Source: a virus
Lineage: Duplodnaviria > Caudoviricetes
Virus record (IMG/VR): IMGVR_UViG_3300042196_000046
Location: 1-51,088 of that record
Length of the DNA stretch: 51,088 nucleotides
Direction: 5' to 3' (one strand)
Shown here: in pieces, positions 30,934 to 46,372 of the stretch
Layout of the letters: every line of letters starts with the position of its first letter
How positions within the stretch are numbered: position 1 is the stretch's first letter
Made by a program: the position numbers and the translations under genes
Notes under the pieces: model-generated
What the model saw: only the letters and a program-made list of their open reading frames with translations
What the model was told of the DNA's origin: nothing
The model's database searches: none

Positions 30934-31796
30934 AGCCAGCTCGGCCGCGGGACCACCGGGGCCTCCGGCGCCGTCCAGCAGCGTTCCTTGAAGTCGCAGA
31001 ACTTACAGCGCCAGTCGGTTCGCTCCTTGGCGATGCGCGGCAGATCCTCGGGGCGCTCGGACTCCAGCACTCGCACGGCGCGGTCGGTGAGCGCCTGTGC
31101 GGCTTGGCCGTCGAACTTGACCACCTCCCAATAAGGGATCATGGTATCGAGATTGAGTATGGAAAACAGCGTGTGCTCAATTTCCATATAAGCCATATTG
31201 GTTTGCAGCTGCCCATAATAAACCGGGTCTGCGCCAGCCACTCCATTCTTGGAGAATTTGGCCCACTTGTTGGCCGTTGCTTTCTTGCTCTCCCAGATGC
31301 ACGGGACGGGTAGCCGGTCGCCTATGCCGACAGGCACGGCCACAATCACGCCGTCCACCTGGCCGGCGATGCGTGACTGTCCGGTGGCCGGATCGCGCGC
31401 GGACTTGAAGCCGATCTGCTCCGGCTTGCCTTCGGCGTCGAAAATCGGCATGCCTTGAAAGTCGGCGCGGTGCGTCAAGAGCTGGAACCCGGCCAATTTC
31501 AGCCAGTGCGCCATGTTGGCCTCGGTCCAGTCGCCCGCTGCCGCGTGGCGCGCGAGCTCGCCAGCAGACACGTATTCCTCGCGGGGCTCCTTCTCGACCT
31601 TGTGGTAGCGGTAGGCTAGCTCACGCACACACTCGAGGCCGATGTAGCCAGACCCGATGCGCTTCTTTGCCACGTCGCCCTGGCCGGAGCCGCGCGTGGC
31701 GTCGTAAAGGGCGCGCTTGTGCTCGACCAAGGCTTGATCGATGGCGGCCGTCAGAAGGTCCGGCAGATCACCCTTCGGGCGCGGCGCGAAATTCAT
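30930..31796 (-). CDS. PD-(D/E)xK Cas4-like exonuclease
   Basis: SGYIGLECVRELAY, GQVDG, WESK, QLQTNM, CKFCDFKERC (four-Cys cluster). Confidence 0.85.
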   Translation of the reverse strand: MNFAPRPKGDLPDLLTAAIDQALVEHKRALYDATRGSGQGDVAKKRIGSGYIGLECVRELAYRYHKVEKEPREEYVSAGELARHAAAGDWTEANMAHWLKLAGFQLLTHRADFQGMPIFDAEGKPEQIGFKSARDPATGQSRIAGQVDGVIVAVPVGIGDRLPVPCIWESKKATANKWAKFSKNGVAGADPVYYGQLQTNMAYMEIEHTLFSILNLDTMIPYWEVVKFDGQAAQALTDRAVRVLESERPEDLPRIAKERTDWRCKFCDFKERCWTAPEAPVVPRPSWL

Positions 31797-31803
31797 CTTG
31801 CCG

Positions 31804-32058
31804 TCACCCGTCAGGCAGCCGCGGTGCGCATGGGCTGTCATCATCCTCGTCCTGGTAGCCGCTGGCGTCCTGGAGACGCCGAGCGATCATTGCCTGGCCC
31901 TTCGGCGTCAGCGCGTAGCAGGCGCAGCACAGCGCCTCGATCGGCGGAAGGCCTGATCGGATAACCCGCGACCCGGGCCGGCAGGTGATCCAGTTGGCGG
32001 CGCGGGAGCATTGTTGGCACCTGTAGGGCGGCTCAGTAACTAAGCGGGCTGTCGGCAT
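31804..32058 (-). CDS. Small Cys-rich hypothetical protein
   Basis: CQQC...CCAC putative zinc finger; fills the gap in the operon. Confidence 0.5.
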   Translation of the reverse strand: MPTARLVTEPPYRCQQCSRAANWITCRPGSRVIRSGLPPIEALCCACYALTPKGQAMIARRLQDASGYQDEDDDSPCAPRLPDG

Positions 32059-32449
32059 CGGACTGCCCCATCTTCATGGCCAGCACGGCGGCGGCCTGGG
32101 CGCGAATCATTTCGACGTGACTCGCGCCAGCCATCGACATGGCCACGTCGGAGACCTCGCTGGGGTTGATGAAGCCGGCGTTCTCGCAGACCTCGATAAA
32201 GTCGAGCCGATTCAGATGCCGCCCCTGCATTGTCAGCCACCGCCGCGCCTCAGCGCGCAGCCGCGAGCACTCGGCCGAGCGCTTCTGACTGGTGTCGCTA
32301 TGGCCCAGGCGGCGCGCGTAGTGGCCGTTGGGCGCCCAGCGGGCATCGATGATGGCCTGGGCGAGGACGTGACGCCACAACGCCACCACGGCGACGCTGT
32401 CGAGCTGCGCCGGATCCAGCGGCTCCAGGGGGGTGTCCCACAGCTTCAT
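32033..32449 (-). CDS. Conserved phage hypothetical protein
   Basis: LWRHVLAQAIIDA...ARRWL...DFIEVCENAG; coupled to the helicase stop. Confidence 0.7.
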   Translation of the reverse strand: MKLWDTPLEPLDPAQLDSVAVVALWRHVLAQAIIDARWAPNGHYARRLGHSDTSQKRSAECSRLRAEARRWLTMQGRHLNRLDFIEVCENAGFINPSEVSDVAMSMAGASHVEMIRAQAAAVLAMKMGQSDADSPLSY

Positions 32450-34131
32450 GCCGCCACCGCCGCGCCGACGCTTTCGAGTTTCTTGCGCATGCCATTGGAA
32501 TTGAACTTCCATGTCAGGAAGCAGGCCGCCTCGTAGCGCGTAAGCGCGACCGATCGCGGGTCCATACCGAGCAGCTGGAGCTGCTTCTCGGTGGCAGGCA
32601 GATGCAGCCAGCGCTTGCTCTTGGCCGCCCCTTGCTTGTCGCCGTGCTCGCGCATCCAGTCGTCGCCGGCCGCGAGGCAGAGCATCTTTTCGCCAGCGAG
32701 CAGGTAGTGGACGCCGCGCTCGACGTGCCCGCCGAAGACGTGCCACGTACCCTGGTAGAAGACCGCGGCGGCCCAGGCGTCGAACGCCGTGGCGAGGTAG
32801 ACTGCGCCGTCCCACAGCGTTTCCCATCGGAACGGCGACTGCGCGAAGATGTCGATCTCGGTCAGGATGAACTCGATCGGCTGCCCGTCCTGGCCGACCG
32901 CCGATCCGCCGGCGCCGCGGTCGCTCTCCTCGCGCGGCATGACGTGGCCGCAGATGGCGCACTCGCGCGAGCTCGCCGGGATCTCGGCGCCGCACTCCGG
33001 GCAGTCGACCATCTTGGGCTCGGCCTTGTAGGGCTCGAGGTCGATGTCCTGCTCGAGGGAGCCGTGCGTGATGACCGACGTCCCGAAGTCCAGGACGATG
33101 CAGTCCAACTTGGGCGCGCGGCCAGGGTAGCGCTCGGGATCCAGGCGGCGCAGCCCGCGCCCGATCATCTGGATCATCGTGCTCTGGTAGGAGCTGGGGC
33201 GCAGCAGGACGACACAGGAAACCGCCTGGCAGTCCCAGCCCTCGGTCAGCACAGCGACGTTGACGACCACCTGGAACTCGGCGCGGTCGAAGCTGCGGAT
33301 CAGGGCGCGCCGCTCGCCGTCCGGCATCTCGCCCGTCACCATGCGGGCCGTGATGCCCGCCTCGGCGAACGCCTCGGTGACGTGCGTAGCATGCTCGACC
33401 GTCGAGCAGAAAGCGGCCGTCTGGCGATCGCCCGCCACCTCGCGCCACTTCTCGACCACCTGTCGGTTGAGAACCTGATGATCGAGGATTCGGGCCACCG
33501 CAGTCATGTCGAAGTCGGCCACGGTGCGGCGCACCTTGGCCAGCTCCTCGTTGACACCCAGGTCGATCACGAACGTCCGCGGGCGCACCAGGTGGCCGGA
33601 GCGAATCAGCTCGGCAAGCGTGATCTGGTCGGCCACGTTGTCGTAGATGCCCCGCAGGGCCTTCTTGTCGCCGCGATTGGGGGTCGCCGTGACGCCCAGC
33701 TGAGCGACGTCGGGGTTGAGCTCGCGGGCGCGCTCGTAGATCTTGAGGTAGGAGGCGGCGGCGCTGTGGTGGGCCTCGTCGGTCACGATCAGGTCGACCG
33801 GCTGCATGGCGCCCAGGTTGCGCGCCAGCGTCGGGACCATCGCGAACTGGACGGGGCGCTGCCAGTCCTTGCGCTCGGCGTTGATCACCCCGCTCGAGAC
33901 CGACATGCCCGCCAGGGCGTGGAAGGTCCGTCGGTTCTGCTCGACCAGCTCGTCGCGGTGCTGCAGGATCGCCACGCGCTCGGCGCCGCGCTCCATCGCC
34001 GCCACCACCACGGCCGAGAGCATGACCGTCTTGCCGGCGCCAGTCGGCGCGACCCCTAACGTGTTGTTATGCTTGCCGAGCGCGTCCATGCATCGCTGGA
34101 CGAATTGCTCCTGGCGCGGCCTGAGAAGCAG
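32446..34131 (-). CDS. SF2 DEAD/DEAH-box helicase with C-terminal zinc ribbon (probable CTG start)
   Basis: LRPRQ Q-motif, APTGAGKT, DEAHH, TATP, TEGWD, QMIGRGLR, CPECG..CAICG; AGGAG SD 7 nt before CTG at 34131. Confidence 0.92.
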   Translation of the reverse strand: MLLRPRQEQFVQRCMDALGKHNNTLGVAPTGAGKTVMLSAVVVAAMERGAERVAILQHRDELVEQNRRTFHALAGMSVSSGVINAERKDWQRPVQFAMVPTLARNLGAMQPVDLIVTDEAHHSAAASYLKIYERARELNPDVAQLGVTATPNRGDKKALRGIYDNVADQITLAELIRSGHLVRPRTFVIDLGVNEELAKVRRTVADFDMTAVARILDHQVLNRQVVEKWREVAGDRQTAAFCSTVEHATHVTEAFAEAGITARMVTGEMPDGERRALIRSFDRAEFQVVVNVAVLTEGWDCQAVSCVVLLRPSSYQSTMIQMIGRGLRRLDPERYPGRAPKLDCIVLDFGTSVITHGSLEQDIDLEPYKAEPKMVDCPECGAEIPASSRECAICGHVMPREESDRGAGGSAVGQDGQPIEFILTEIDIFAQSPFRWETLWDGAVYLATAFDAWAAAVFYQGTWHVFGGHVERGVHYLLAGEKMLCLAAGDDWMREHGDKQGAAKSKRWLHLPATEKQLQLLGMDPRSVALTRYEAACFLTWKFNSNGMRKKLESVGAAVAA

Positions 34132-34219
34132 CGGGGATCTCCTGTTTTGGGAAGGGGTGGCGGCGACGCTCGACTGCTCGGGAGACTCGCGAGCGCCGCC
34201 ACGGCAGAGAAAGGAAAGA

Positions 34220-34471
34220 TCAGCCTGGTGTTAGGACAGTGACCGTGACCAAGCCCTGGCCGTTGGCAATGTGAGGCACTTGAGAGGCGTCAGAAGTAAC
34301 GTGACTTTTCCCACATCCTGTGTTCTCGACGTGGTAAAGCACGGTGTCGAAGATGGACGTTGCCGGGAGTGAGGCGATCACGCACTTGACCAGATGTTCT
34401 CCCATGGCTGTCGCCTTCTCTAGCGATCTGTAATATTTGCCGGATTCCAAACACAGGACCACTGACCCCAC
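34220..34471 (-). CDS. Hypothetical protein in AT-richer insert
   Basis: AAGGA SD before GTG; atypical codon usage. Confidence 0.3.
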   Translation of the reverse strand: MGSVVLCLESGKYYRSLEKATAMGEHLVKCVIASLPATSIFDTVLYHVENTGCGKSHVTSDASQVPHIANGQGLVTVTVLTPG

Positions 34472-34575
34472 GGGCGATTTCCTTTTTTGTTGTCCATTGG
34501 AAAGTTTGTGGTTTACACCTCTAGATTGTTACCACGGCTTCGACTTTCGCGCAATTAAAGGCTTTTGCGCTAAAT

Positions 34576-35205
34576 CTATGCCAGCCAGCTGGGCTTACTT
34601 GGTGGCGTCTGCTGGGGTGACGCGGTGGCGGGAGCGGCCGGCCGCTGCCACGCCGGAGCGGCGGCCTGCGCCGGGGCTCCGCCCGATGCCACCGGCGCCC
34701 GCACGTTCTTGGGCGCCGTGTCGCCCGCCAGCAGGCGCTCGAAGTCCTTGGACGTCGCCGGGTCCACCGGACTCAGCCAGACCGCGATCTCGTTCTTGGC
34801 GGGGTAACCGTTCTTCTCGGGGTCCTCCTTGACCTTGATGGCGACCTTGAGGCCGTCAAGCTCGTGGTAGCCCTCGATCGCGTAGGCGCCCATGGCGTTG
34901 GGGCCGGCGCCGCGGCCGACCTCGAGGATGGCGCGGATCGCCGAGCGGCCCATGTTGACGTAGGCCTCGGAGCCCTCGACGCCGATCCGGGTGAAGATCT
35001 TGCGCCTGTTGAACTCGCCGCCCTCGACCGTCACCTCGCAGTCGAGATATTTGGCGGCGCTCGACTTGCTGGGCGTCTCGACCATGCCACGATCGAGGTT
35101 GTAGTAATTGATGGACAGCACGCCGAACGCCAGCATCCCATGGGGGATCAGGACGGTGAAGTCCTTCTGGCTGGGGGCATCCGCGAAGTTCAGCTTTCCG
35201 GTCAT
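34576..35205 (-). CDS. Single-stranded DNA-binding protein (phage type)
   Basis: YLDCEVTVEGGEFNRRKIF...KNEI, P/A-rich tail ending KPSWLA; next to Sak4-like ATPase. Confidence 0.7.
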   Translation of the reverse strand: MTGKLNFADAPSQKDFTVLIPHGMLAFGVLSINYYNLDRGMVETPSKSSAAKYLDCEVTVEGGEFNRRKIFTRIGVEGSEAYVNMGRSAIRAILEVGRGAGPNAMGAYAIEGYHELDGLKVAIKVKEDPEKNGYPAKNEIAVWLSPVDPATSKDFERLLAGDTAPKNVRAPVASGGAPAQAAAPAWQRPAAPATASPQQTPPSKPSWLA

Positions 35206-35218
35206 GTTGGGGGTCCGA

Positions 35219-36145
35219 TCAGAAGGGGATGTCGTCGTGAGTGTCGGAGGCAGGCGCCTTCGGTTCTGGCGATGCCGCCTGAGCGGCCGGCAGGCCATAG
35301 ACCATCTGGTCGCCGCGCTTGGCGCCCTTGATCTTGGCAATCAGCTTGCCGAGATGGGGCTCCTCGATCACGTCCAAGCGGCCGGAGCGATCCTTGGCCG
35401 GGTAGCCCCACGGGTTAATGGTGTGGCAGACGAAGGCACGGTAGGACGTGCCGTCGTCGGTCTTGAGCTCGACCATGCTCACCACCTGGTCGACGATGCC
35501 CGGCAGCTCGAGCTGCGTCTTGCCGCCGTCGACCTGGAGCTGCCAGGACGAGCGCCCGAAGTCGTCGGTCTTCTTCTCGAGGATGCCGACGAACACGACG
35601 TTCTTGTCCGGGCAGTGCTTGAGCTGGTTCAGCAACCCGCCGCCGCCCACCATCTCCTGGCCGAGCAGCCCGTAGGCGCCGCGGTTGTCCGGCTTGCCCT
35701 CCTTGTTGAAGGCCTCCGGTTGCGCCTTGGCCCACGAGAAGGCGAGGCGCGCGGCCTCGGTGATCGAGTCGAAGAACAGGGTGTCGTACTTGCCCAGCAC
35801 CTCCGAGCGCGCGCCGAGGGTCTTCTGTGCCCAGGCGAAGTGCTCGGCTGAGTAGGGCCGGCTGGCGTCGGCGGCCGGGTTGGGCCCGGACACCAGGGCG
35901 CCGAGGGCGCGCAGGAAGTCCCACGGGTGCAGGTTGAGGGCGATGGACGCTGCCCGGACGTCCAGGCTGTCGCCCGGCCAGTCGTCCAGGGCGAGCATCC
36001 CCGCCTCCATGTCGACCAGCAGCGTCTTGCCGGGGTCGAGCGTGCGGGCGAGGCTGGTCTTGCCGATCCCGGAGGGACCGGCAATCACCAGGTCGACCGC
36101 GCTCTGCTGGGCGAGACGCTGATCCGCCGTGACGATGAGGGCCAT
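35219..36145 (-). CDS. AAA ATPase, Sak4-like single-strand annealing protein
   Basis: GPSGIGKTS Walker A, DMEAG, FDSIT, PAKDRSGRL, acidic DDIPF end. Confidence 0.85.
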   Translation of the reverse strand: MALIVTADQRLAQQSAVDLVIAGPSGIGKTSLARTLDPGKTLLVDMEAGMLALDDWPGDSLDVRAASIALNLHPWDFLRALGALVSGPNPAADASRPYSAEHFAWAQKTLGARSEVLGKYDTLFFDSITEAARLAFSWAKAQPEAFNKEGKPDNRGAYGLLGQEMVGGGGLLNQLKHCPDKNVVFVGILEKKTDDFGRSSWQLQVDGGKTQLELPGIVDQVVSMVELKTDDGTSYRAFVCHTINPWGYPAKDRSGRLDVIEEPHLGKLIAKIKGAKRGDQMVYGLPAAQAASPEPKAPASDTHDDIPF

Positions 36146-36567
36146 CAGGCGTCCTTCTTCTTGCCCTTGGCCTTGGCCGCGGCCTGGTTGCCGTAGCCGC
36201 CGGCGAACTCGTCGCTGACTTCGGCGACGGCGGTGGGCGCGTTGAAGTCATGGTCGAAGGCGAGCGAGGTGACCGCCTCGCCCTGGGCATGGTCGGGCTG
36301 AGGGTCGGGGCCTCCGGCAATCGGCTCCGCCGCGGCCTCGGCCTTGGGCTTGCGCGGGCGCTTGACCGGCGCGAACACGCGCAGGGCGGCGATGACCTCA
36401 AGGGCGTTCTCGATCGCCAGTGTGACCGGGGATCCGAGGTCGCTCGGGTCCGAGGAGCACAGGAGGCCTCGGAGCGACTGTCGCGCCTCGTACTCGGCCA
36501 CCGCTTGCTTGCTGTTGTGCTCGGAGCCGTCCGCCGCACGCCAGCGCTTGATCAGTTCTGCCGCCAT
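36145..36567 (-). CDS. Hypothetical protein
   Basis: Coupled to the ATPase start; GAGG SD. Confidence 0.65.
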   Translation of the reverse strand: MAAELIKRWRAADGSEHNSKQAVAEYEARQSLRGLLCSSDPSDLGSPVTLAIENALEVIAALRVFAPVKRPRKPKAEAAAEPIAGGPDPQPDHAQGEAVTSLAFDHDFNAPTAVAEVSDEFAGGYGNQAAAKAKGKKKDA

Positions 36568-36601
36568 GGATTGCTTGACCTCTGTGGGTTGGGGGAGTCG
36601 T

Positions 36602-37072
36602 TCAGCCCTCGCGGGCGTCCTCGAGATCGATCTGCAGCGCGCCGTACTTTACGGTGCGCGCAGCGTCGATCTTGTCCTTGAGCGGCCCCGGGGGAAGCGC
36701 CTTGTAGATGCTCTCGGGGATCGAGAAGTCGATCTTGAACAGATGGTTGATCTCTGCGATGGAGAGGCTGGTGGCGAGCTTGCGCAGCGCCTCGCCATCC
36801 CACTTGACCGCCTTGGAACGCGAGCCTTTGAGCTTGGCGATGCCGTCCAGGGGCACGGTCACGTCGCCGCTGGCGCGGTTGCCGTAGGCGTCGACCACGC
36901 GATGGGTGTAGCGTGCCTCGACGGCGGCGCGGATGGCGTCAAGCTCAGCATTGAGCGGGGCAACGGCTAGTTCGTGCGCCTCTACCTCGCTCAGCCAGTT
37001 GTTGAAAGCGTCGCGCCGGTAGTCGAGCAGATCGGCTAGCGGGCACGTTAGGAAGTCGGGAACGTTGCTCAT
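36602..37072 (-). CDS. Conserved phage hypothetical protein
   Basis: KAVKWDGEAL...FSIPESIYKALP...ARTVK family usually upstream of Sak4-like ATPases. Confidence 0.7.
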   Translation of the reverse strand: MSNVPDFLTCPLADLLDYRRDAFNNWLSEVEAHELAVAPLNAELDAIRAAVEARYTHRVVDAYGNRASGDVTVPLDGIAKLKGSRSKAVKWDGEALRKLATSLSIAEINHLFKIDFSIPESIYKALPPGPLKDKIDAARTVKYGALQIDLEDAREG

Positions 37073-37350
37073 GCCGCCGGCGCCATCAGACGCAAGCGCT
37101 CGATCTCGTAGATGCGGGCGAACTGTTCCGCGGTCACGCCGGCGGCGTCGCCGAGTTTGGCGAGGGTGTCCATCTTGGGCCAACTCTCCCGGTGGGGGCG
37201 GGCTCCGCGCCGTGTATGACAAAGAGAAGACGCCTCGAGACCGGCCCGTACACCAAGCCCGGACAACGAGCAGCCCGCCATCTCAGCCATACGTTCGATC
37301 GATGCCCACATGGCGCGATGGGAGAGGTCGAGAGCGTGAGCAGTTCTCAT
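37069..37350 (-). CDS. HTH transcriptional regulator (Cro-like, first gene of early operon)
   Basis: SHRAMWASIERMAE...SLSGLGVRAGL...WPKMDTLAKL resembles alphaproteobacterial HTH regulators. Confidence 0.75.
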   Translation of the reverse strand: MRTAHALDLSHRAMWASIERMAEMAGCSLSGLGVRAGLEASSLCHTRRGARPHRESWPKMDTLAKLGDAAGVTAEQFARIYEIERLRLMAPAA

Positions 37351-37387
37351 CAGCTGCAACCACCTTGTAGAATTTGTCGATTGGCGG

Positions 37388-37416
37388 GTTATACGACAGC
37401 AATCCAGAAAGCACAA
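37388..37416 (-). promoter_or_regulatory. Leftward early promoter overlapped by operator-like palindrome
   Basis: TTGTGC-N17-TATAAC on the - strand; TGTCG-N14-CGACA at 37375-37398. Confidence 0.6.
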
Positions 37417-37448
37417 GGAATTTTCGAGCCATGCCGTTCAAAAGACGC

Positions 37449-37477
37449 TTGCAAATTTCTGGCACGCAATATAAGAT
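37449..37477 (+). promoter_or_regulatory. Repressor-operon promoter
   Basis: TTGCAA-N17-TAAGAT upstream of 37522. Confidence 0.65.
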
Positions 37478-37521
37478 TGAGGGAATAAAACGACAAAACC
37501 GACGAGGAAGGCCGCAGGAAT

Positions 37522-37956
37522 ATGGCGAGAACCAGATGGCGGAATGAGCCGCCGAACCCTAGTTTCGACTCGGCTGGAGCGACGGCGGAAGAAATCAGGG
37601 CAGAGTTCGCCAGCAGATTACAAGCACGGCTCATAGAGTTGCACTGGTCGCAGTCGGAGCTGGCCCGCAAGGCGAGCGACAGCCGCGACAACATCTCTAA
37701 CTACGTGCGCCGGCGGGCATTACCCGAACCGCAACGCCTAGCAAAGCTGGCGGCAGTGCTCGGCGTGGAACCGGACTGGCTGATCCCGCCGGGGACGCCA
37801 GCAAGCCACCGAGACGTTGAAGCGTTCGACGCCAAGCAGCTATCCAGCAACCGCGTGCGGCTGCGGATCAATCAGGTGGTGTCGTGGGATACCTTCGTGG
37901 CGATCGCCGCGGCTCTCAAAGAGGATGAGAACATGGGCAATGCTGACAAAAACTGA
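37522..37956 (+). CDS. XRE-family HTH repressor (CI-like)
   Basis: RLQARLIELHWSQSELARK...ISNYVRRRALP...LAAVLGVEPDWL; divergent from the Cro-like gene. Confidence 0.85.
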   Translation: MARTRWRNEPPNPSFDSAGATAEEIRAEFASRLQARLIELHWSQSELARKASDSRDNISNYVRRRALPEPQRLAKLAAVLGVEPDWLIPPGTPASHRDVEAFDAKQLSSNRVRLRINQVVSWDTFVAIAAALKEDENMGNADKN

Positions 37957-38233
37957 GTTCGCCAAGCTCGCCCGGCGCTCGACACGCACCATAGAGCGCT
38001 GGACTCAGCGCGGCCTGTTGCGGCCGATCGAGACGCCGGGCGGCCCTCTGTTCACCGAGGAGATGCTGACGTGCCCAAGCCCAAGCGACAAGTGCCCTGG
38101 CTCGAGCAACGGGCAACGGGCGGCAACTACTACGCCTTCTGGTACGACGCCGCCCGACGACGGGTCCAGCGCCAGAGCATGGGCACAACGGATGCGCCAG
38201 AAGCGGGCCGCCGCTTCTCGCATTGGCTGGTAG
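37940..38233 (+). CDS. Excisionase / HTH DNA-binding protein
   Basis: MLTKTEFAKLARRSTRTIERWTQRGLL; 3' end overlaps the integrase start. Confidence 0.75.
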   Translation: MLTKTEFAKLARRSTRTIERWTQRGLLRPIETPGGPLFTEEMLTCPSPSDKCPGSSNGQRAATTTPSGTTPPDDGSSARAWAQRMRQKRAAASRIGW

Positions 38234-39153
38234 AGCACTATCGCGGCCAGGGCATAACCCCGCCGAACGCGGTGGGCCTGCTGACCGTCCGCGACTTGCT
38301 GGCGCTCTATCAGGAGGAGCACATAGACAAGAAGGTGGTCGAGGTCGAGACCTACACCACCATCTGCCGCCACCTGGATAGCCACTTCGGCCCTCTCCTG
38401 CCCCTGCAGATCGAGGGGGCGGTCGACGGATATTGCCAGCGGCGCCGCATGGGCGACATCGGGCGGTCATGCTCGAGCAGCGGCACGCTGCGCACCGAGC
38501 TGTCGATCCTGCTGGCCGCCCTGAATCACGCCGTGCGCAAGCGGCGCCTGACGACGGCCGACGTGCCCTACATAGAGCTGCCAGCCCACGCCGAGCCTCG
38601 CGACGCATGGTGGACGGCAGACCAGATCCGGGCCATCCTCGAGAGCGCCCAGGGCGAGGCCCCTCGCCTCACCCGCGCCTACCGCTTCGCCGCGCTCGGC
38701 TACTACCTGGGCGCGCGGCGCCGGGCGATCGAAGATCTGACGTGGTTCCAGGTGGACCTCGACCACCGGCTAGTGACGCTGCAGCCCAAGGGGCGCGAGC
38801 GCACTAAGAAGCGCCGGCCCGTGGTCCCGATCCATCGCGAGCTGCTGCCGATCATGCAGCGCGCCTACAGCGAGCGCAGCAGCGAATACGTCCTGGACCA
38901 CAAGCGGCCGGTCTATCACGTGTTTGTGCAGGCGCTGAAGCGCGCCGGCTTGACCGGGCATCCGCACATGCTGCGCCACAGTCGCGCCGTGCATCTTGCA
39001 CAACGGGGGGTTGATCTGTATGCCATAGCTGGACTTCTGGGCGACACGCTGGCGACCGTGGAGCGAAACTACCTGCACCACGCGCCAGAGCATTTGAGGC
39101 TGAGGCTTGATCCCCACGGCATGGCCGATGGGATGGGAAGGGAAACAGGATGA
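38071..39153 (+). CDS. int: Tyrosine recombinase / integrase
   Basis: LGARRRAI (R), TKKRRP (K), HMLRH, LLGDT...NYLH (Y); N-terminal arm-binding-like domain. Confidence 0.93.
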   Translation: MPKPKRQVPWLEQRATGGNYYAFWYDAARRRVQRQSMGTTDAPEAGRRFSHWLVEHYRGQGITPPNAVGLLTVRDLLALYQEEHIDKKVVEVETYTTICRHLDSHFGPLLPLQIEGAVDGYCQRRRMGDIGRSCSSSGTLRTELSILLAALNHAVRKRRLTTADVPYIELPAHAEPRDAWWTADQIRAILESAQGEAPRLTRAYRFAALGYYLGARRRAIEDLTWFQVDLDHRLVTLQPKGRERTKKRRPVVPIHRELLPIMQRAYSERSSEYVLDHKRPVYHVFVQALKRAGLTGHPHMLRHSRAVHLAQRGVDLYAIAGLLGDTLATVERNYLHHAPEHLRLRLDPHGMADGMGRETG

Positions 39154-39569
39154 TAGATGAGCTGGATGCATTGCGCGGCATCGTGGCCGAGTTGATCGGC
39201 GTCGCTTGGGATGGCGGCGCTTTCGATGGCGGTGAGCTGCAAGACATGCTCGTCAAGCATGGCGCGCTCTATGAGGTGCCCGCCACCCCCGAAGACTGTG
39301 CGAAGGAGTGGGCGGTCGACCTTGGAATCGAACCGGGAGACACGATCTACAGGGCGACGAAATGGGATCAACTGTCGGCTCGGGATGCGACGTTGGGCGA
39401 GCAAGATTGGATCAATCAACTAGGCGCGGTGGTCGATGCCCAAGCCGAAGACGACGGCTTGTGGTTCCTCGCTCAGACGGCGCCAGAGGCATATCTGCAG
39501 CAAGAGCTGCGCAAGCTGCACGCTATGGTTGAGCAAGCGCGCGAAGCGACTCGGGAGGGCGCACAATGA
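39150..39569 (+). CDS. Hypothetical protein
   Basis: ATGA-coupled to integrase. Confidence 0.65.
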   Translation: MIDELDALRGIVAELIGVAWDGGAFDGGELQDMLVKHGALYEVPATPEDCAKEWAVDLGIEPGDTIYRATKWDQLSARDATLGEQDWINQLGAVVDAQAEDDGLWFLAQTAPEAYLQQELRKLHAMVEQAREATREGAQ

Positions 39570-39931
39570 ACCCCAGGGCAGACGAGACTTCTATTGCCAC
39601 GTCCCTGCCCGCCCTCTTGATGCTGCTCCTGGTCGGATGCGCAAGCGAGCCCACCGCTGGCCAGTGGGTCGACGTCTCCGGCCAGGGCCGCAGCGACGAG
39701 CAGCTGGGGATGGACAAGGCAGCGTGCCACTACCAAGTGCAGACGACCGCCAGCTCGCGCCAAGCGCTCCCGATGGGGCCGGGCAACACCATCGCCGGCG
39801 CGGGGGCGAACATGACCAACGCGCTGATGGGGGCGATCTTCCCCTACGATCGGCTGTATGGCAGCTGCATGGCCGCGGGCGGGTGGAGGTGGCAGGAGTC
39901 TCCACTCGTCTGGACGGCGGATCTCGATTGA
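39566..39931 (+). CDS. Lipoprotein (lysogenic operon; possible superinfection exclusion)
   Basis: Lipobox LVGC; Cys pair DKAAC...SCMAAGGW. Confidence 0.7.
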   Translation: MNPRADETSIATSLPALLMLLLVGCASEPTAGQWVDVSGQGRSDEQLGMDKAACHYQVQTTASSRQALPMGPGNTIAGAGANMTNALMGAIFPYDRLYGSCMAAGGWRWQESPLVWTADLD

Positions 39932-39956
39932 CATTCTGAGCGACGCGCAGTAAGGT
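39928..39956 (+). promoter_or_regulatory. sigma70 promoter of putative sRNA
   Basis: TTGACA-N17-TAAGGT with no downstream ORF before the terminator. Confidence 0.7.
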
Positions 39957-39962
39957 GCGCTT

Positions 39963-40031
39963 CTAGTGTCTGAAGTTGTCAGCTCCAGACCGAACGGCCC
40001 CGGGCCTGACACCCGGGGCCGTTTTCTTTTT
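39963..40031 (+). ncRNA. Putative trans-acting antisense sRNA (about 65 nt, two hairpins)
   Basis: GTCTG/CAGAC hairpin exposing TTGTCAGCTCC, then a 12-bp terminator stem and U-tract; complementary to RBSs at 43983-43995, 44225-44238 and 45440-45450. Confidence 0.7.
39993..40031 (+). terminator. Rho-independent terminator
   Basis: AACGGCCCCGGG-cctgaca-CCCGGGGCCGTT then TTCTTTTT. Confidence 0.85.
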
Positions 40032-42049
40032 CAGACCTTCGGGGGCTCGATCATCCAGGCGACGGGCGAGCTGTCCACCTGGTAAGCCTTGAGCTCGGGA
40101 GCGCTTTTGCCGCGCTGGACGTTGCTGAGCCAGCTTTGATAGGAGCGTTTGGCGGCGGAGCCATCTTCGCCGTCGCCTGGGTCCAGTCCGAGCGCTCGCG
40201 TCATGTCCTCGGCGATCGCCATCGATCCGGCTGGATTCTTGGACACCACCCGCTTGAACAGCTCGATCCGCTGCTTGAGGGCTTCTTCGTGCTCGGCGCG
40301 CTCGATCGACGTCGCCTTGCTGCGCGCATCGCGCGGCCCGGGGGCGAAGTTCATCGCCGCGTTGGCGTCATGGTCGAAGGCAAGCGAGGTGATCGCCTCG
40401 CCGTCCAGGTCCGTGCCCACCTCGATGGCCGTGGACCGGAACACCAGCGGAGCCGGCTTGATGCCGTCGCGTAGCTTACTAGTTGCCCAGATGGTGCCCG
40501 CGCTTCCCTTGGTGGATTGCTCGACCTCAAAGACGCCATCAGCCGCGCCGTTAATGCCGGACCACCCGCGCATGCCGCGGGACTTGTCCTTGCCCATGTG
40601 GTGGACTACGACTACGGCTGCCGCGTAGTCCTGGGCGATCGCGATCAGCGAGCCGATGACAGGCCCCATGTCGCGCCCGCTCGACTCGTCGAGCCCTGCC
40701 GACGTGGCTGCCAGCGTGTCGATGTAGAGCGCGCCGGGGTGGAAGCCGCGCCCGGCGAGCTCGTCCAGGGTGATCCGCAGGCGTTCTGCGCCCTGGTGGG
40801 CGAATTGCGGCGTCTCGGTGATGACCACCAGCCGCGGCGCGCTCTCGGGCATGTGGTGCCGGTTCCAGGCGCGCAGGCGATGCTTGAGGCCAGTAGCGCC
40901 CTCGGCGGCGATGTAGAGCACGTCGACGGGCTCGCGCACCTTGCAGCCGGCCCACCGGCGCCCAAGGGCGAGGTGCATGGCCTGGTCGATCGCGAGGAAG
41001 CTCTTGTGCTGGCCTGGCTCGCCAGTGATGAAGTTGAGGGTGCCGCGGTACAGGATGTTCTTGATCAGCGGCTCGCGATCGGGTAGCGCGTCCAGCTCGA
41101 GCGGCGACAGGCAGCGCAGCGCGCCAGTGGGCTCGACCATGGGCATGGCGACGCGCTCGGCCGTCTCGATCAGCTGTTCGCGCTCGCCGCGCTCGGCATC
41201 GGCCGCGTCCCACTTGGGGGGCTTGCCGGCAGGGATCCGCACCGCGTGGACCGCGGCCGGGCGCACCGTGGCCAGCGCCTCGAGGACGCGCTCGCGCCAC
41301 TTGGCGCCCGCGGCGTCGCCGTCCTGCCAGAGTATCACCGTGCGGCCAGCGAGCGGCGTCAGGTCAGCCTGGCCGATGGCCTGGGCGCCGCCGGCGACTG
41401 TGGTCGCCAGGTAGCCGAGCTCGCGCACCGCGTCGGCGCACTTCTCGCCCTCAACCAGGATCACGCGCTCTGCGCGGCGCGCCAGCAACTCCGGCAAATA
41501 GAGCAGTGGGCGCACGCCATCGGGCCACTCGTAGAGCCGAGTGGCGTCGTTCCATGGGCGGATGGCCTTGACGTTGGGCTGCGTGGGGTGGCGGTAGCGG
41601 GCGACCTCGACATAGAGCGAGCCATCGGCGCGCACGTACTGCCAGCGCGCTTCTGGCTTGACTCGGCGATACCACAGATGGTCGGGCTCGGCGCGCTCGC
41701 TATGGGGGGTCGAGGCCGCGAGGCCAAGCCAGCTCTCCGCCTCGTGCTTGGCGTCGACCTGGGACAGGCCGCGCGTGGCCGCCCAGAGGTTGATCAGGTC
41801 CGCGCCGGCCTCGCCGCCGGCAAAGTCCTGCCAGACACCCTCAGCGAGGTTGACCGACATGGAGCGGCCGCGCCCGCCGCCCAGGTCGCCGCAGACGTAC
41901 TCGCCGCCCATGCGCCGCCCGCCGGGCAGCAGATGCCGGCAGACGGCCTCGGCTTGGCCGAGCAGCCAGTCGTTGACCTCGCTGAAGGAGCGCTTCGGCG
42001 CCGCGGACAACGCGCGGGGCTCGGGGGCGAAGTTGAGGAGCTTGCCCAG
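40031..42049 (-). CDS. Primase-helicase (TOPRIM + RecA-like AAA helicase)
   Basis: WQDFAGGEAGADLI N-domain, VEGEKCADA and QDGDAAG TOPRIM motifs, GEPGQHKS Walker A, IDTLA, VHHMGKD..GMRGWS; start is CTG 42049 or TTG 42010. Confidence 0.9.
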   Translation of the reverse strand: MGKLLNFAPEPRALSAAPKRSFSEVNDWLLGQAEAVCRHLLPGGRRMGGEYVCGDLGGGRGRSMSVNLAEGVWQDFAGGEAGADLINLWAATRGLSQVDAKHEAESWLGLAASTPHSERAEPDHLWYRRVKPEARWQYVRADGSLYVEVARYRHPTQPNVKAIRPWNDATRLYEWPDGVRPLLYLPELLARRAERVILVEGEKCADAVRELGYLATTVAGGAQAIGQADLTPLAGRTVILWQDGDAAGAKWRERVLEALATVRPAAVHAVRIPAGKPPKWDAADAERGEREQLIETAERVAMPMVEPTGALRCLSPLELDALPDREPLIKNILYRGTLNFITGEPGQHKSFLAIDQAMHLALGRRWAGCKVREPVDVLYIAAEGATGLKHRLRAWNRHHMPESAPRLVVITETPQFAHQGAERLRITLDELAGRGFHPGALYIDTLAATSAGLDESSGRDMGPVIGSLIAIAQDYAAAVVVVHHMGKDKSRGMRGWSGINGAADGVFEVEQSTKGSAGTIWATSKLRDGIKPAPLVFRSTAIEVGTDLDGEAITSLAFDHDANAAMNFAPGPRDARSKATSIERAEHEEALKQRIELFKRVVSKNPAGSMAIAEDMTRALGLDPGDGEDGSAAKRSYQSWLSNVQRGKSAPELKAYQVDSSPVAWMIEPPKV

Positions 42050-42079
42050 ATGACGGCCTTTCCGATTGGGAAGGGCTTC

Positions 42080-42301
42080 CTATAACTCAGGTGGGCGGCT
42101 CGGGTCAATGGCCAGCATGGCCGGGTTCAGCTCCTCGATCAGCTCCGGGCGCTGGCGGACCAGCAGCTCGAGCGCTTGGCGCCACGGGTTGCGGCGCAGT
42201 GGGCGGTACATGGTGCCCTTGTCGATGCGCTCGCCGGTGATGGCCTCGACCCAGCGTCGGAGCTGGGCCGGGGTCACGCGGCGCGGGGCGGGGTCAGGCA
42301 T
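42080..42301 (-). CDS. Small hypothetical protein (possible DNA-binding)
   Basis: MPDPAPRRVTPAQLRRWVEAITGERIDKGTMYR...; overlaps the upstream gene. Confidence 0.55.
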   Translation of the reverse strand: MPDPAPRRVTPAQLRRWVEAITGERIDKGTMYRPLRRNPWRQALELLVRQRPELIEELNPAMLAIDPSRPPEL

Positions 42302-42482
42302 CGGAAGCCTCACGCAGGGCTTCCTCGAACTCGTCTTGCGTGAAGTCGGCCAGCCCATCAAGAGCCTCGATCTCATCGCAGATGTCCATGTAGGCGGCGC
42401 CTATGTTGGTCAGCTCGCCAGTGAAATCTACGTGGCTGGCGCGCAGCATGTCGATTGCGTCAGCGGCGGTCCAGGTCGTCAT
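42294..42482 (-). CDS. Small acidic hypothetical protein
   Basis: AGGAG SD before ATG 42482; a TTGACA -35 element lies at 42538-42533. Confidence 0.6.
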   Translation of the reverse strand: MTTWTAADAIDMLRASHVDFTGELTNIGAAYMDICDEIEALDGLADFTQDEFEEALREASDA

Positions 42483-42600
42483 CGCTCGTCTCCTGCTGTT
42501 GATGCTCCCAATATCTATGGCGGAACGCCACATGTCAAGAGGACATATCCAGTTTCGGCATCTTTTTTCTGTCGTCCCCTCTGTTGCTCGCATAGGTTGC

Positions 42601-42955
42601 GCTCGTACCTAAGGCTGTACTCGCGTGGCGAGTACAGCTTATTCACATCAATCGGGCTGTTGATGGTTGGCTGAAAGCCGCAGAAACGGCTGGGCTTCAA
42701 GTTGTATTCCACATTACGGATCATGTGACTCGTACCTCGCTCGTACCTTCACTCGTACCTGTACGAGTCACACAGGGTGGTGTGTGGTTCTGAGAATGTA
42801 ATGGTTTCATAGAGTTATGGGCCGTTCTTAAAGCGCTCGTACCCACTCGTACATGTACGAGTCGTACCTGCCGTACTGGTCACTCGTACCTCCGCTCGTA
42901 CCCTGCCCCCCGTAAGGGGGGGGCGGGGGAGTACGAGCGGGGACGAGTACGACGG
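42601..42955. repeat. Iteron-like CTCGTAC array, putative replication origin
   Basis: CTCGTAC at 42602, 42729, 42740, 42752, 42836, 42846, 42883, 42895; inverted GTACGAG at 42761, 42855, 42931; adjacent to the primase-helicase operon. Confidence 0.75.
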
Positions 42956-43352
42956 GGCTATCGGCTACGAACGGAGGGGCTGTACGCGGGACCTGGGGTC
43001 GCCCAGGCAACGGCTTGGATCAAACGATAGCCTGGTGAACCGGACTACGCCGTCCGATTGCCTTCGCCAATCAATGGACGGCCGCATTTCGCCTAACTTG
43101 TCCTCGTATTGCCCGATCGCGACGACGGTCCATGTGCTCGAGCCCCTGGTCAGGGAGGTTCCGATCGGTGGGGGCGCGACGAAGGTGATGTTGCTGACTG
43201 GCTTCGCGCGTACATTCACCACCAGATCACTCCCATCATGAACAGGATAGCCCCTAGGGCTGCCGTGGGCACGCCTAGGAGCGCGGGGAAGGCGGAGCCG
43301 CACCAGACGGCCACCAGGCCGGCGCCGCTCGCTAGCAGGGCTTGGCGGGGCG

Positions 43353-43583
43353 TCATGGGGCTATGCCTGCGGGTACGACTCGCGCTGGGATCGGGTCTGG
43401 CATGGTGGCTTGGTACCGGACGGCCAGCAGGCGCGCCATCATGCGTCCCAGCTCGGCGGTTGGTGTCTTGCGGCCGGGCGAGCTATGGCGGGAGGTGATC
43501 GGCCAGCCATTCGAGCCTACGACGGTCACGACCGCCGTCCAGCCAGTGGCGCCAGGATGTAGGGCAACATCGATGGTGGTCAT
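43353..43583 (-). CDS. Hypothetical protein
   Basis: AGGAG upstream; follows 43606-43980 in the same orientation. Confidence 0.55.
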   Translation of the reverse strand: MTTIDVALHPGATGWTAVVTVVGSNGWPITSRHSSPGRKTPTAELGRMMARLLAVRYQATMPDPIPARVVPAGIAP

Positions 43584-43605
43584 GGGGCTGGGTCACTCCT
43601 GGGGG

Positions 43606-43980
43606 TTATCGGTGGCTGGCCATCTGGACGACCATGCCGCTGGGCGCAGTGGGGCCGCAGGCGCCCCACTTCCTCCAGCAATTCCGGCAAGCATGCTCGG
43701 GATCGCCGGCGTGATCGATGGCGCGCTCAAGGTATTCGGCTGCGTCGCGCAGCAGATCCAGCCTCGAGGGGCGGTGCTTGGAAATGCTCGCCCATGCGAG
43801 TGAGTCATGGACGACGTGCAGCGTCATGGACAGGTCACCACTGGCTGCCTCGTAGAGCTCGTGCAGGGCGTCGAGCATCGTGGCATAGCTGAGCCGTCGC
43901 GCGGGGCGCGGCTCATGGTCGGGCATGAGCTCGCGGATGAAGGGATAAAGCAGGCTGTCGGCATGGGTGTATCGGGTCAT
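43606..43980 (-). CDS. Hypothetical protein with C-terminal Cys motif
   Basis: GGAG SD within the repeated leader; HACRNC...C. Confidence 0.65.
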   Translation of the reverse strand: MTRYTHADSLLYPFIRELMPDHEPRPARRLSYATMLDALHELYEAASGDLSMTLHVVHDSLAWASISKHRPSRLDLLRDAAEYLERAIDHAGDPEHACRNCWRKWGACGPTAPSGMVVQMASHR

Positions 43981-43982
43981 GG

Positions 43983-44248
43983 TGTCAGCTCCAGAGGTTG
44001 AGGTTTGATTGGCACAATTGAGCGTCGCCTTGTGGGCGGCGCTCTATGTGGCAATCTTTAGGCTTGGTGCGGAGTGGGATAGATTCCGCCGTTACCATGC
44101 CGCCTACTGAACTTGACATGGCGAATGTACAAATCTCCGCCGAGATCTTGTTGCAGACACTTTGCCCAGCTGAGGGTAAAGGCCTCTGCGACCACGAAGT
44201 TGCCGCCATCGATGAGTTGATACATTGTCAGCTCCAGAGGTTGAGGTT
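43983..44248 (-). repeat. 23-bp duplicated translation leader
   Basis: TGTCAGCTCCAGAGGTTGAGGTT at 43983-44005 and 44226-44248, each directly upstream of a - strand ATG. Confidence 0.9.
44058..44225 (-). CDS. Small hypothetical protein (55 aa)
   Basis: MYQLIDGGNFVVAEAFTLSWAK...; GGAG SD in the repeated leader; TTGACA at 44299-44294 upstream. Confidence 0.55.
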   Translation of the reverse strand: MYQLIDGGNFVVAEAFTLSWAKCLQQDLGGDLYIRHVKFSRRHGNGGIYPTPHQA

Positions 44249-44340
44249 GGTTATTGGGTATCTGCGATCTGGCGTAGGACCGTCGATCGATCATGTCAAC
44301 AATAATCGACAAGGCGTGGAAAAAAAGCTAAGAGGCTGGC

Positions 44341-44880
44341 ATGGCTATGCCCAAGGGACACAACGTGCGTGGTCGCGATGGCCGTCTACTCGGCAGCAGC
44401 GGGCTCACGGAAAAACAACAGGAATATGCATATCTACGCTCGAAGGGGATTGCCAAAGGCGAGGCAGCAAGGCGTGCTGGTTATTCGCAGCCAGACCAGG
44501 AAGCGCAGCGCCTAGAGGCCCATCCAGCGGTCGCCGCGGCCATCCACAAGGCCCAATCCAGCGAGATACGCGACCTCGCCACGCTTGGCCTGCAGCGCCT
44601 CCGCAAGATCCTCGAGGAAGACGTCGAGACCGCCAGCGGGAAAGACCTTCAGGCCCGCGTCGCGGTGCAACTCCTCGACCGTGCCGGCCACGTGGCGCCC
44701 AAGGCGGGCGCAGACGCCACGCCAGGCGCTGAGAAGCCGCTGCACGAGATGACGCTAGCCGAGCTCGAGGACGTGGCCAGAGAGGCGCGCGGGCGCCTCG
44801 CTGGCCTGCTGCAGTTGGGCGAGCGCAAGCCTGCGATCGAAGGCGTTGTCGTGGAGGTTGGCGCGCAGGATCGAGCGTAA
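44341..44880 (+). CDS. terS: Terminase small subunit
   Basis: LTEKQQEYA...EAARRAGYS...AQRL...HPAV, ARVAVQLLDRAG. Confidence 0.82.
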   Translation: MAMPKGHNVRGRDGRLLGSSGLTEKQQEYAYLRSKGIAKGEAARRAGYSQPDQEAQRLEAHPAVAAAIHKAQSSEIRDLATLGLQRLRKILEEDVETASGKDLQARVAVQLLDRAGHVAPKAGADATPGAEKPLHEMTLAELEDVAREARGRLAGLLQLGERKPAIEGVVVEVGAQDRA

Positions 44881-45033
44881 GCCGCAGAAACCCTAGGGTT
44901 AGCCGTTGTGAGGTGCAAGATTGAGGGAGGCTGGGCAGGCCATACCCCGCCCCCGGGCGGGGGGCCGGAAGGAAGATTGAGAAAAACGTTCGGCCCCCTC
45001 TACCAAGCCGGGCAAAACGGGAAAACCTTTTAG

Positions 45034-45062
45034 TCGACAAATACGACAACAACCACTATAAC
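45034..45062 (+). promoter_or_regulatory. Putative promoter overlapped by CGACA repeats
   Basis: TCGACA-N17-TATAAC upstream of 45103. Confidence 0.55.
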
Positions 45063-45102
45063 CCCACCCATCCGAAGACCCGCCAACAACGAGGAACGAT
45101 CC

Positions 45103-45291
45103 ATGTCCGAGTTCATTCTCACCCCCGGCATCGCCGTCAAAGGCTACACCCCCGGTCGCTACGCGAAGCGCTTCACCGGCACGCTCATCACGATCAACGG
45201 CGAGGGCGTGAACCGCTTCGCCATCGTCAAGCGCGACGACGGCAAGATCATCAAGATCCGCCCGGCCGTCCTGGAGGCGATCGCGGCCTAG
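45103..45291 (+). CDS. Small basic beta-barrel-like protein
   Basis: GAGGA SD, strongly biased codons. Confidence 0.7.
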   Translation: MSEFILTPGIAVKGYTPGRYAKRFTGTLITINGEGVNRFAIVKRDDGKIIKIRPAVLEAIAA

Positions 45292-45385
45292 CTCTCCCCG
45301 CCGGCCAACTTTCCCCTTGCGCCATTTGTCGGAATGCGATACTTTCGACAGTGACGCTAGTCGATACGGCCTCTTCGCCTTAACT

Positions 45386-45431
45386 CCCCGCCCCGCCGGT
45401 CACTTCAAACCTAGCCGGGGCGGGGTTTTTT
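45386..45431 (+). terminator. Rho-independent terminator / attenuator before the MTase-terL-portal operon
   Basis: CCCCGCCCCG...CGGGGCGGGG followed by TTTTTT. Confidence 0.75.
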
Positions 45432-45449
45432 CTTCGCAAGGAGCTGACA

Positions 45450-45677
45450 ATGGCCGCCATCGAGATCCCCGTCTACATCAACGACCGCGAGGCCTTGGTC
45501 GACCTGGCTGACCCGCGGCTGCCATATCCCCACGCGGACCCGGTGGCCTCCCTGTTCCGCCTGCGCGAGGCTGGCTTCATCAACCCCGACAACAGCCTCA
45601 CTCCCAAGGGCGAAGCCGCCCTGCCCCACTGCCGCCGGAAGCAGGACACCTGCCCCTTCTCGGGGAAGGCCCGATGA
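45450..45677 (+). CDS. Hypothetical protein (leader gene of packaging operon)
   Basis: AAGGAG SD; ATGA-coupled to the methyltransferase. Confidence 0.65.
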   Translation: MAAIEIPVYINDREALVDLADPRLPYPHADPVASLFRLREAGFINPDNSLTPKGEAALPHCRRKQDTCPFSGKAR

Positions 45678-46372
45678 TCACTCTGGACGCCCTGCGGGGC
45701 GCGAGCTACGGCGCCATCCTGGCGGACCCGCCGTGGCGCTTCGCTACCTGGAGCGACAAGGGACGCGGGCGCTGCCCGGACGGTATGTCGAGCGGGCAGT
45801 TCCGCCACTACGAGACCATGACCCTGGACGCCATCAAGGCCTTGCCGGTGGCCGATGTCGCAGCGCAGGACTGCGCCCTGTTCTTATGGGTGACGGAGCC
45901 GATGCTGGAGCACGGCCTTGCGGTCGGCAAGGCCTGGGGCTTCACCTACAAGACCAAGGCGTTCTGCTGGGCGAAGCGCACCAAGCACGGGAAGTGGCAC
46001 ATCGGGACCGGCCACTGGACACGCGCCAATCCCGAGGACTGCCTGCTGTTCACTCGCGGCAAGCCCAAGCGTCTCTCGTGCGCGGTGCGCGAGCTGATCG
46101 AGGCTCCTGTCCGCGAGCACTCCCGCAAGCCGGACGAGATCTACGACCGCATCGAAGCCCTGGTCGCCGGACCGTATCTCGAGCTGTTCGCGCGCACGCG
46201 CCGCGATGGCTGGGCTCAGTGGGGGAACCAGGCCGACAAGTTCTCTCCCGCCTCGCCTCCCACCCCGCCCAAGCCGACCGCGGCTGAGCTCTCCCGCCGC
46301 TACCTTGGCGCGGACGTCAAGCACATCCCGCCCCTGCCGGGGCAGCTGGACATGCTGGCGGCAGATGGCTGA
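45674..46372 (+). CDS. MT-A70 family adenine methyltransferase
   Basis: ILADPPW, HYETM, LFLWVT, WGFTYKT, HSRKP, YLELFAR..GWAQWGNQ. Confidence 0.93.
   Translation: MITLDALRGASYGAILADPPWRFATWSDKGRGRCPDGMSSGQFRHYETMTLDAIKALPVADVAAQDCALFLWVTEPMLEHGLAVGKAWGFTYKTKAFCWAKRTKHGKWHIGTGHWTRANPEDCLLFTRGKPKRLSCAVRELIEAPVREHSRKPDEIYDRIEALVAGPYLELFARTRRDGWAQWGNQADKFSPASPPTPPKPTAAELSRRYLGADVKHIPPLPGQLDMLAADG

Follow-up and report, generated by a model that had tools for sequence, protein, structure and literature searches.

A candidate small antisense RNA at the end of a phage lysogeny block, with a seed complementary to a start-site cassette common to several phage genes

The subject of this report is a short intergenic unit in the genome of a phage (Duplodnaviria; Caudoviricetes), IMG/VR record IMGVR_UViG_3300042196_000046, whose anatomy fits a small-RNA gene carrying a seed antisense to a common translation-initiation cassette. 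The window, meaning the whole stretch of DNA that was analysed, is this complete record of 51,088 base pairs (bp; 65.5% GC). The candidate locus sits in a 99-nucleotide (nt) gap between an open reading frame (ORF) for a lipoprotein and the gene for a primase/helicase, and it comprises a promoter-like element, a seed about 35 nt downstream of that element, and an intrinsic terminator. In our judgement there is about an even chance that a short antisense RNA made from this unit prevents translation of the two genes that open the leftward early operon. The parts of the unit are as follows.

39928-39956, + strand: promoter-like element, TTGACA-N17-TAAGGT, recognised from the sequence; its -35 overlaps the TGA stop codon of the lipoprotein ORF
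39963-40030, + strand: predicted RNA of about 68 nt, with a weak 5' hairpin and the intrinsic terminator; its start is placed from the -10
39976-39989, + strand: seed, TTGTCAGCTCCAGA, antisense of the common Shine-Dalgarno (SD)-to-start cassette
39992-40034, + strand: intrinsic terminator (stem 39992-40024 plus T run), with a 13-bp GC-rich stem, a 7-nt loop and a TTTTCTTTTT tail

The promoter-like element combines a perfect -35 hexamer and 17-nt spacing with a -10 hexamer (TAAGGT) that agrees with the consensus at three of six positions. Across the 51 kilobases (kb) of the genome, on both strands, the pattern TTGACA-N16-18-TANNNT occurs only here, where 0.12 occurrences are expected and 11 of 100 shuffles contain at least one. 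The terminator is strong: the stem at 39992-40024 with its T run reaches -27.1 kcal/mol (z -5.37; 0 of 200 shuffles equal), its tail reads UUUUCUUUUU, and it abuts the stop of the convergent primase gene. The entire 68-nt predicted RNA folds at -35.4 kcal/mol (z -4.57). No convincing ORF lies between the promoter-like element and the terminator, the sole frame open across the unit having a GTG start without an SD sequence and running antisense into the primase gene, and the arrangement described by the first-pass annotation of this DNA, a stretch free of ORFs and then a terminator, is borne out. The same terminator also ends the repressor-integrase-lipoprotein operon, so the RNA may simply be the 3' untranslated region (UTR) of that operon. 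A search of the whole window with Rfam gave no match at the gathering score, in agreement with the earlier remark that the family was not recognised; with E values up to 10, the region 39880-40080 yielded 22 matches below threshold, most of which centre on the hairpin of the terminator. The best are CC1840 (28.9 bits against 50) and BjrC68 (19.1 against 39), and no phage antisense family is among the 22. A scan of the window for transfer RNA (tRNA) genes found none, and an attP site or tRNA fragment at the hairpin was dropped as a candidate on that negative result.

The seed is complementary to the start regions of the following sites, two of which lie behind a common promoter-like element.

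44225-44238, - strand: target 1, TCTGGAGCTGACAA, a 14-nt perfect complement ending in the A of the ATG at 44225-44223; the gene (55 residues) is the first of the leftward operon
43983-43995, - strand: target 2, TCTGGAGCTGACA, a 13-nt perfect complement, 2 nt before the ATG at 43980; the gene (124 residues) is the second of the operon
45440-45450, + strand: possible target 3, GGAGCTGACAA, an 11-nt complement running into the ATG at 45450 of a 75-residue ORF
43983-44005 and 44226-44248, - strand: copies of the 23-nt start-site cassette, AACCTCAACCTCTGGAGCTGACA, an exact 23-mer repeat
44271-44299, - strand: promoter-like element, TTGACA-N17-TACGCC, the putative promoter of the leftward operon that holds targets 1 and 2

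The seed sequence recurs exactly at 44225-44238 and at 13 of 14 positions at 43982-43995; read on the - strand, TCTGGAGCTGACA(A/C) directly precedes both the ATG at 44225 and that at 43980. The two 23-nt cassette copies lie 243 nt apart, and their genes are the first two behind the promoter-like site at 44271-44299; further leftward follow two small ORFs, an array of GGTACGAG, a promoter-like site at 42538, two more small ORFs, and the primase gene. On the + strand, the start of the gene at 45450 carries GGAGCTGACAATG, with an 11-nt complement to the RNA and 13 nt in common with the 44225 start, and the ORF beginning there overlaps the start of an MT-A70 methylase gene, after which comes terL. 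The first-pass annotation had listed complements of 14, 13 and 11 nt at 44225, 43980 and 45450 and had placed the last of these genes at the head of a methylase-terL chain, and both statements hold. It had also counted three distant targets; the three sites exist, but they are really one start-site cassette used three times, so the targets are not independent and count as one event.

An alignment of all four copies leaves the invariant core GGAGCTGACA; with at most one mismatch the 13-mer has three copies in the genome, to which the 10-nt core at 45440 is added. Identity between seed and targets is limited to the SD-to-start part, the 10 nt upstream in the cassette agreeing at 2 of 10 positions, and this confinement fits selection for occlusion of the ribosome-binding site (RBS) better than it fits a decaying copy or a copy of the whole cassette. 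The - strand copy at the seed has no start codon at a usable distance and therefore cannot be a working start; the idea of a - strand gene beginning beyond it was dropped on the same ground.

The complementarity of the seed to start regions goes beyond chance, and that of the third site alone does not. When dinucleotide shuffles of the 68-nt RNA were compared with 213 liberally defined start regions, 20 of 20000 reached a perfect complement of at least 14 nt to any of them, and 1246 of 20000 (6%) reached at least 11 nt, so that little weight attaches to the 45450 match by itself. Antisense matches were also sought between 69 start regions and 30 noncoding segments (4757 nt, both strands); outside the cassette family only this locus reached at least 13 nt, the next value being 12 nt. 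When cofolding energy is reckoned net of the structure that each partner forms alone, the sites at 44225 (-16.7 kcal/mol), 43980 (-16.7 kcal/mol) and 45450 (-12.0 kcal/mol) take ranks 1, 2 and 3 of 64 start regions, which is where the first-pass annotation expected them. Its proposal of a packaging-operon target keeps the third rank, but the match is weak, at 11 nt and with the best unrelated start, that at 18648, reaching -11.0 kcal/mol at rank 4. The target start regions are themselves unstructured (z +0.25 to +1.66).

The setting of the unit is given by the genes on either side of it.

37522-37956, + strand: HTH_3 (Cro/C1-type) repressor-like gene, heading the same-strand lysogeny block
38071-39153, + strand: tyrosine integrase, from family matches
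39566-39931, + strand: 121-residue lipoprotein ORF, with a signal peptide and the lipobox LLVGC; the last gene before the RNA unit
40031-42010, - strand: primase/helicase (AAA_25), transcribed towards the RNA unit; it closes the leftward block

The phage is temperate. Its lysogeny block runs head to tail on the + strand as the HTH_3 repressor-like gene, the integrase gene, a 139-residue ORF, and the lipoprotein ORF; the earlier description of a repressor-xis-int operon fails in that no xis was recognised. The lipoprotein ORF has codon-position GC contents of 0.61/0.55/0.86 and matched no Pfam or PHROG family, and a lysogenic-conversion or superinfection-exclusion function is plausible for it. 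Several helix-turn-helix (HTH) proteins are encoded by the phage. The ends of the record repeat each other (1-175 and 50914-51088; 127 and 47 nt exact with one mismatch between them), so the record is circular or terminally redundant, though classed as linear.

In the reading to which we give an even chance, an RNA of about 68 nt would be made from its own promoter at 39928-39956 or would form the 3' portion of the repressor-integrase-lipoprotein transcript; in either case it would end at the terminator at 39992-40034. Because the unit stands at the end of the lysogeny block, lysogens should contain a seed-bearing RNA even with a silent internal promoter. First contact would probably involve the GUC loop that the weak 5' hairpin leaves exposed, after which the seed would pair over 14 and 13 contiguous bases with the SD-to-AUG regions of the 44225 and 43980 genes. 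Such pairing would occlude the RBS and lower the synthesis of two small proteins. A third, weaker target may be the gene at 45450, which heads the methylase-terminase chain and has 11 nt in common with the cassette. A broader view, to be held only tentatively, is that several of the phage's own genes come under one trans-acting immunity RNA through the same start-site cassette, beside the protein repressor. On the same tentative footing, the members of such an RNA regulon would be the two genes that open the early-left operon together with the gene that heads the methylase-terminase chain, and the RNA would be supplied from the 3' end of the lysogeny block.

Several observations weigh against regulation by an RNA. 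The first-pass annotation called the promoter near-consensus, which is true of its perfect -35 and is joined by its uniqueness in the genome, but the -10 agrees at only three of six positions and for that reason the consensus promoter scan omitted the element; TTGACA itself is not enriched, with 11 genome copies where about 10 are expected from base composition. The seed does lie in the first hairpin, as had been stated, but this hairpin fails to reach significance (-7.8 kcal/mol, z -1.05; 28 of 200 shuffles fold equally well), and it buries 9-10 of the 14 seed bases at an opening cost of 8.5 kcal/mol, leaving the GUC loop free. Exact repeats of at least 14 nt are common genome-wide (62 direct and 52 inverted). 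When plain duplex energy is computed over 30-nt windows on both strands of the genome, the two main sites come no higher than 8th and 9th once the list is collapsed, behind the perfect self-antisense site, which is first, and six GC-rich imperfect sites. All four copies of the core have the same orientation relative to local transcription, which fits a relic or an oriented protein site. No related phage in which covariation of seed and target could be followed was found among isolated phages or viral, genome and metagenome contigs. Finally, in a distant relative whose primase is 31% identical (G001, locus L004), eight starts on one strand of the region 31455-46964 match GGAGAACGACATGA within two mismatches, three of them exactly, and the sole match on the opposite strand has two mismatches. 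That genome has common start sites without an antisense copy, and the sharing of a cassette alone therefore does not imply an RNA regulator.

The searches behind these statements found little that resembles this phage. Neither megablast nor blastn against isolated phages returned similar DNA. Primase relatives in viral, genome and metagenome contigs are only 28-36% identical, the 124-residue target, the lipoprotein and the integrase have no relatives in viral contigs, and exact 23-mers of the RNA and of the cassette have no match there. Relatives of the methylase number 22 (42-60% identity) and have no other tested gene in common with the phage, and a tblastn search with terL gave only distant matches, all below 60% identity. 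A 19-nt cassette pattern matches three viral contigs, against a rough estimate of about 1.7 expected; these are unrelated phages with one copy each and no antisense copy, and since they are not homologous phages they were counted neither for nor against the RNA. The loci of distant primase relatives, scanned for repeats antisense to starts, showed only common start sites (L004, L009) and tRNA-borne att repeats (L021). In the last of these, a direct repeat of about 47 nt (5650-5697 and 16673-16720) resembles, by eye, the 3' part of a tRNA gene and brackets about 11 kb with the primase relative, which suggests the att sites of a prophage integrated in that metagenome contig. Only one public sequencing run contains the stretch, a DNA run that is probably the source sample, with no RNA run among those listed; it holds the identical source contig and short unrelated fragments, with no strain variants.

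The start site itself has a counterpart elsewhere. In one of the three unrelated contigs with the cassette pattern (L060), 24 nt at 1293-1316 are identical to the 43980 start site and lie at the junction of ORFs of 72 and 330 residues, downstream of a 756-residue tape-measure-like ORF. The motif there encodes the C-terminal ...NLWS-stop, and the same frame in the window reads ...NLNLWS-stop before both targets. The 72- and 330-residue ORFs belong to a tail gene cluster and are putative tail proteins X and D.

Four rival readings of the unit were weighed. The start-site copy between the two convergent genes might be a relic: TCTGGAGCTGACAA on the - strand, after the primase terminator hairpin, would be the remnant start of a downstream gene that was lost when the lysogeny block joined, and the hairpin would merely end two convergent transcripts, with no RNA regulation. 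We regard this as unlikely. In its favour, phages commonly have mosaic joints at gene boundaries, the cassette recurs at three gene starts, and the copy at 45450 likewise stands just after a terminator hairpin, as does the - strand orphan, whose orientation agrees with leftward transcription; the reuse of one start site at eight genes in the distant relative also indicates that cassettes spread within such genomes. What a relic leaves awkward is its outline and its neighbour. Only the 14 nt from SD to start remain, so that with the poor agreement upstream trimming on both sides is needed; identity at 14 of 14 positions is not expected of a decaying sequence; and the only TTGACA-N16-18-TANNNT of the genome would stand exactly upstream, on the other strand, by coincidence. 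If the RNA is real and has another role, the promoter and terminator evidence applies equally to an OOP-like convergent antisense of primase read-through, to an RNA acting on host messenger RNAs (mRNAs), or to nothing beyond a lipoprotein 3' UTR, the start-site match being functionless. The - strand hairpin is without a U tract, and leftward transcripts may read through it and be fully complementary to the RNA; cis-antisense RNAs such as OOP, sar and aQ are also the commonest known phage type according to one review (PMC12197685). Still, the predicted RNA ends near 40030, short of the primase stop codon (40031-40033), and so overlaps no coding sequence, and the 14-nt match, reached by so few shuffles, is left unexplained; a real RNA of this kind is improbable.

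Coincidence would dispose of the match altogether: in a GC-rich, repeat-prone genome, 14 nt could agree by accident beside an ordinary terminator. The many exact repeats noted above lend this some credit, as does the counting of the three targets as one event, and the noncoding background (22 matches at 10 nt, 5 at 11 and 1 at 12) extrapolates to an estimated 0.1 or so of at least 14 nt genome-wide. The local probability is nevertheless about 0.001, the 14-mer has 50% GC, unlike the GC-rich coding repeats that dominate the genome's repeat list, and a second coincidence is needed to supply a unique promoter-like element in the right place and orientation, which makes accident less probable still than a functionless match. 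Lowest of all we place an oriented protein-binding site, in which a phage protein would bind the four copies of GGAGCTGACA either in DNA, in the manner of stoperators, which halt elongation in lysogens, or in RNA as a translational operator common to co-regulated genes. The identical orientation of all four copies with local transcription and the several HTH proteins of the phage speak for it. So does the likeness to cluster A mycobacteriophages, whose repressors, according to PMC6550527, bind short asymmetric repeats of 13 bp that are oriented with transcription and lie at gene boundaries, many of them outside promoters; by the same source, though, those genomes carry 20-30 sites each, against four here. 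A separate and obvious array of palindromic, iterated GGTACGAG at 42602-42947 resembles an operator or origin region, and a bound protein would leave the promoter on the opposite strand unexplained.

Most well-described phage regulatory RNAs are either cis-antisense or cut from the transcript that they control, and they come mainly from enterobacterial phages. In P1 and P7, the c4 RNA and its target belong to one operon transcript, from which the RNA is processed, and its pairing covers the RBS; in P4, seqB of the CI RNA pairs with seqA and seqC, the RNA being cut from the transcript that it controls and causing premature termination. For both c4 and CI, the pairing partners are repeated sites within the operon transcript that gives rise to the RNA. 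The candidate recalls the c4 (immI) system as a short base-pairing phage RNA and as an RNA layer of immunity beside a protein repressor, c4 keeping the lytic-promoting ant off via icd; it resembles P4 CI in that one short RNA is complementary to two repeated sites of one early transcript, here the two 23-nt cassettes. Unlike c4, its gene lies 4 kb from the targets, on the opposite strand and with a promoter-like element of its own, and no Rfam phage antisense family matches it; unlike CI, its sites are the start sites of two genes, where the RBS would be occluded, and the RNA comes from the other strand. An origin in the target transcript, which defines the c4 and CI type, is absent: the unit occupies 39963-40030 of the + strand, 4.0-4.2 kb from targets 1 and 2, which are - strand sequences. 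A further source names C4 antisense RNA and Icd as regulators of Ant (PMC8201110).

The other well-known group shares different traits. According to one review, sar blocks initiation of ant translation, and sar, OOP, aQ, sas and STnc6030 are cis-antisense; 24B_1, VpdS and PreS act on phage or host mRNAs and, as the text lists no target coordinates, are left unclassed as cis or trans (PMC12197685). In P22 sar, lambda OOP and aQ, a small phage RNA has a promoter and terminator of its own and tunes the choice between lysis and lysogeny, as the candidate may do; OOP, moreover, is short, convergent and placed where a block of regulatory genes ends, as the candidate would be. Those RNAs, however, overlap their targets and are fully complementary to them, whereas the candidate has a 14-nt seed and sites 4.0-5.5 kb away. 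The overlap with a target gene that marks cis-antisense RNAs is not found: the unit ends at about 40030-40034 and the primase ORF, stop included, ends at 40031, so that at most the primase stop and 3' flank overlap. A closer parallel is offered by trans-encoded bacterial small RNAs, including those derived from 3' UTRs with an internal promoter, which are about 70 nt long, end in a Rho-independent terminator and pair through a short seed with SD-AUG regions. In the candidate, a promoter-like element overlaps the end of a coding sequence, and the predicted RNA is about 70 nt long, with a U-tailed terminator, no coding capacity, and a short seed that matches several SD-AUG regions beyond chance; it differs in that the seed is partly buried in a weak hairpin and the targets are the phage's own genes. 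By sequence, the candidate fits the general class of trans-encoded, terminator-tailed small RNAs; it would work like the c4 and CI immunity RNAs, while departing from them in its origin outside the target transcript and from the cis-antisense group in its lack of overlap.

Further elements of the window accompany these genes. The GGTACGAG array at 42602-42947 holds 13 of the 31 genome matches with at most one mismatch, and seven of the eight exact copies lie in 42602-42902. Two 18-bp palindromes, ACTCGTAC(C/A)TGTACGAGT, stand within it at 42751-42768 and 42845-42862, and just downstream of the array come the promoter-like site at 42538 and the primase operon. The repeats are probably the iterons of a replication origin, or else an operator array. 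A few bases upstream of the 45450 start site is a strong GC-rich hairpin with a T run (45386-45434), preceded by about 80 nt by a weak promoter-like site. In the pR'-tR' style of lambda, a short leader RNA ends at a terminator and antitermination is needed for the late genes; the layout at 45386-45434 recalls such a leader. The sequence TTGTCGATT occurs at 37373-37381 (+), upstream of the repressor gene, and at 44303-44311 (-), by the leftward -35, and is a candidate repressor operator; at the leftward promoter-like site, TTGACA is flanked by GTCGAT and ATCGAC. Divergent from the leftward operon is a 179-residue ORF (44341-44880) in which the N-terminal HTH alone, and weakly, matches small-terminase families (Pfam E 4e-4, below the cut-off), and which may be a regulator rather than TerS.

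Taken as it stands, the locus is a sound, well-formed and testable candidate, and because the pairing is short and perfect the claim can easily be tested in a heterologous reporter. If an RNA does keep the first two leftward early genes from being translated, the known repertoire of phage RNAs would gain an anti-RBS RNA that is encoded apart from its several targets, closes a lysogeny operon and belongs to an uncultivated, GC-rich phage. Such a case would also show how genes can be brought into an RNA regulon when a start-site cassette is copied, the regulon resting on duplicated ribosome-binding sites and the duplicated cassette defining the target set in a phage lineage for which no relatives were found.

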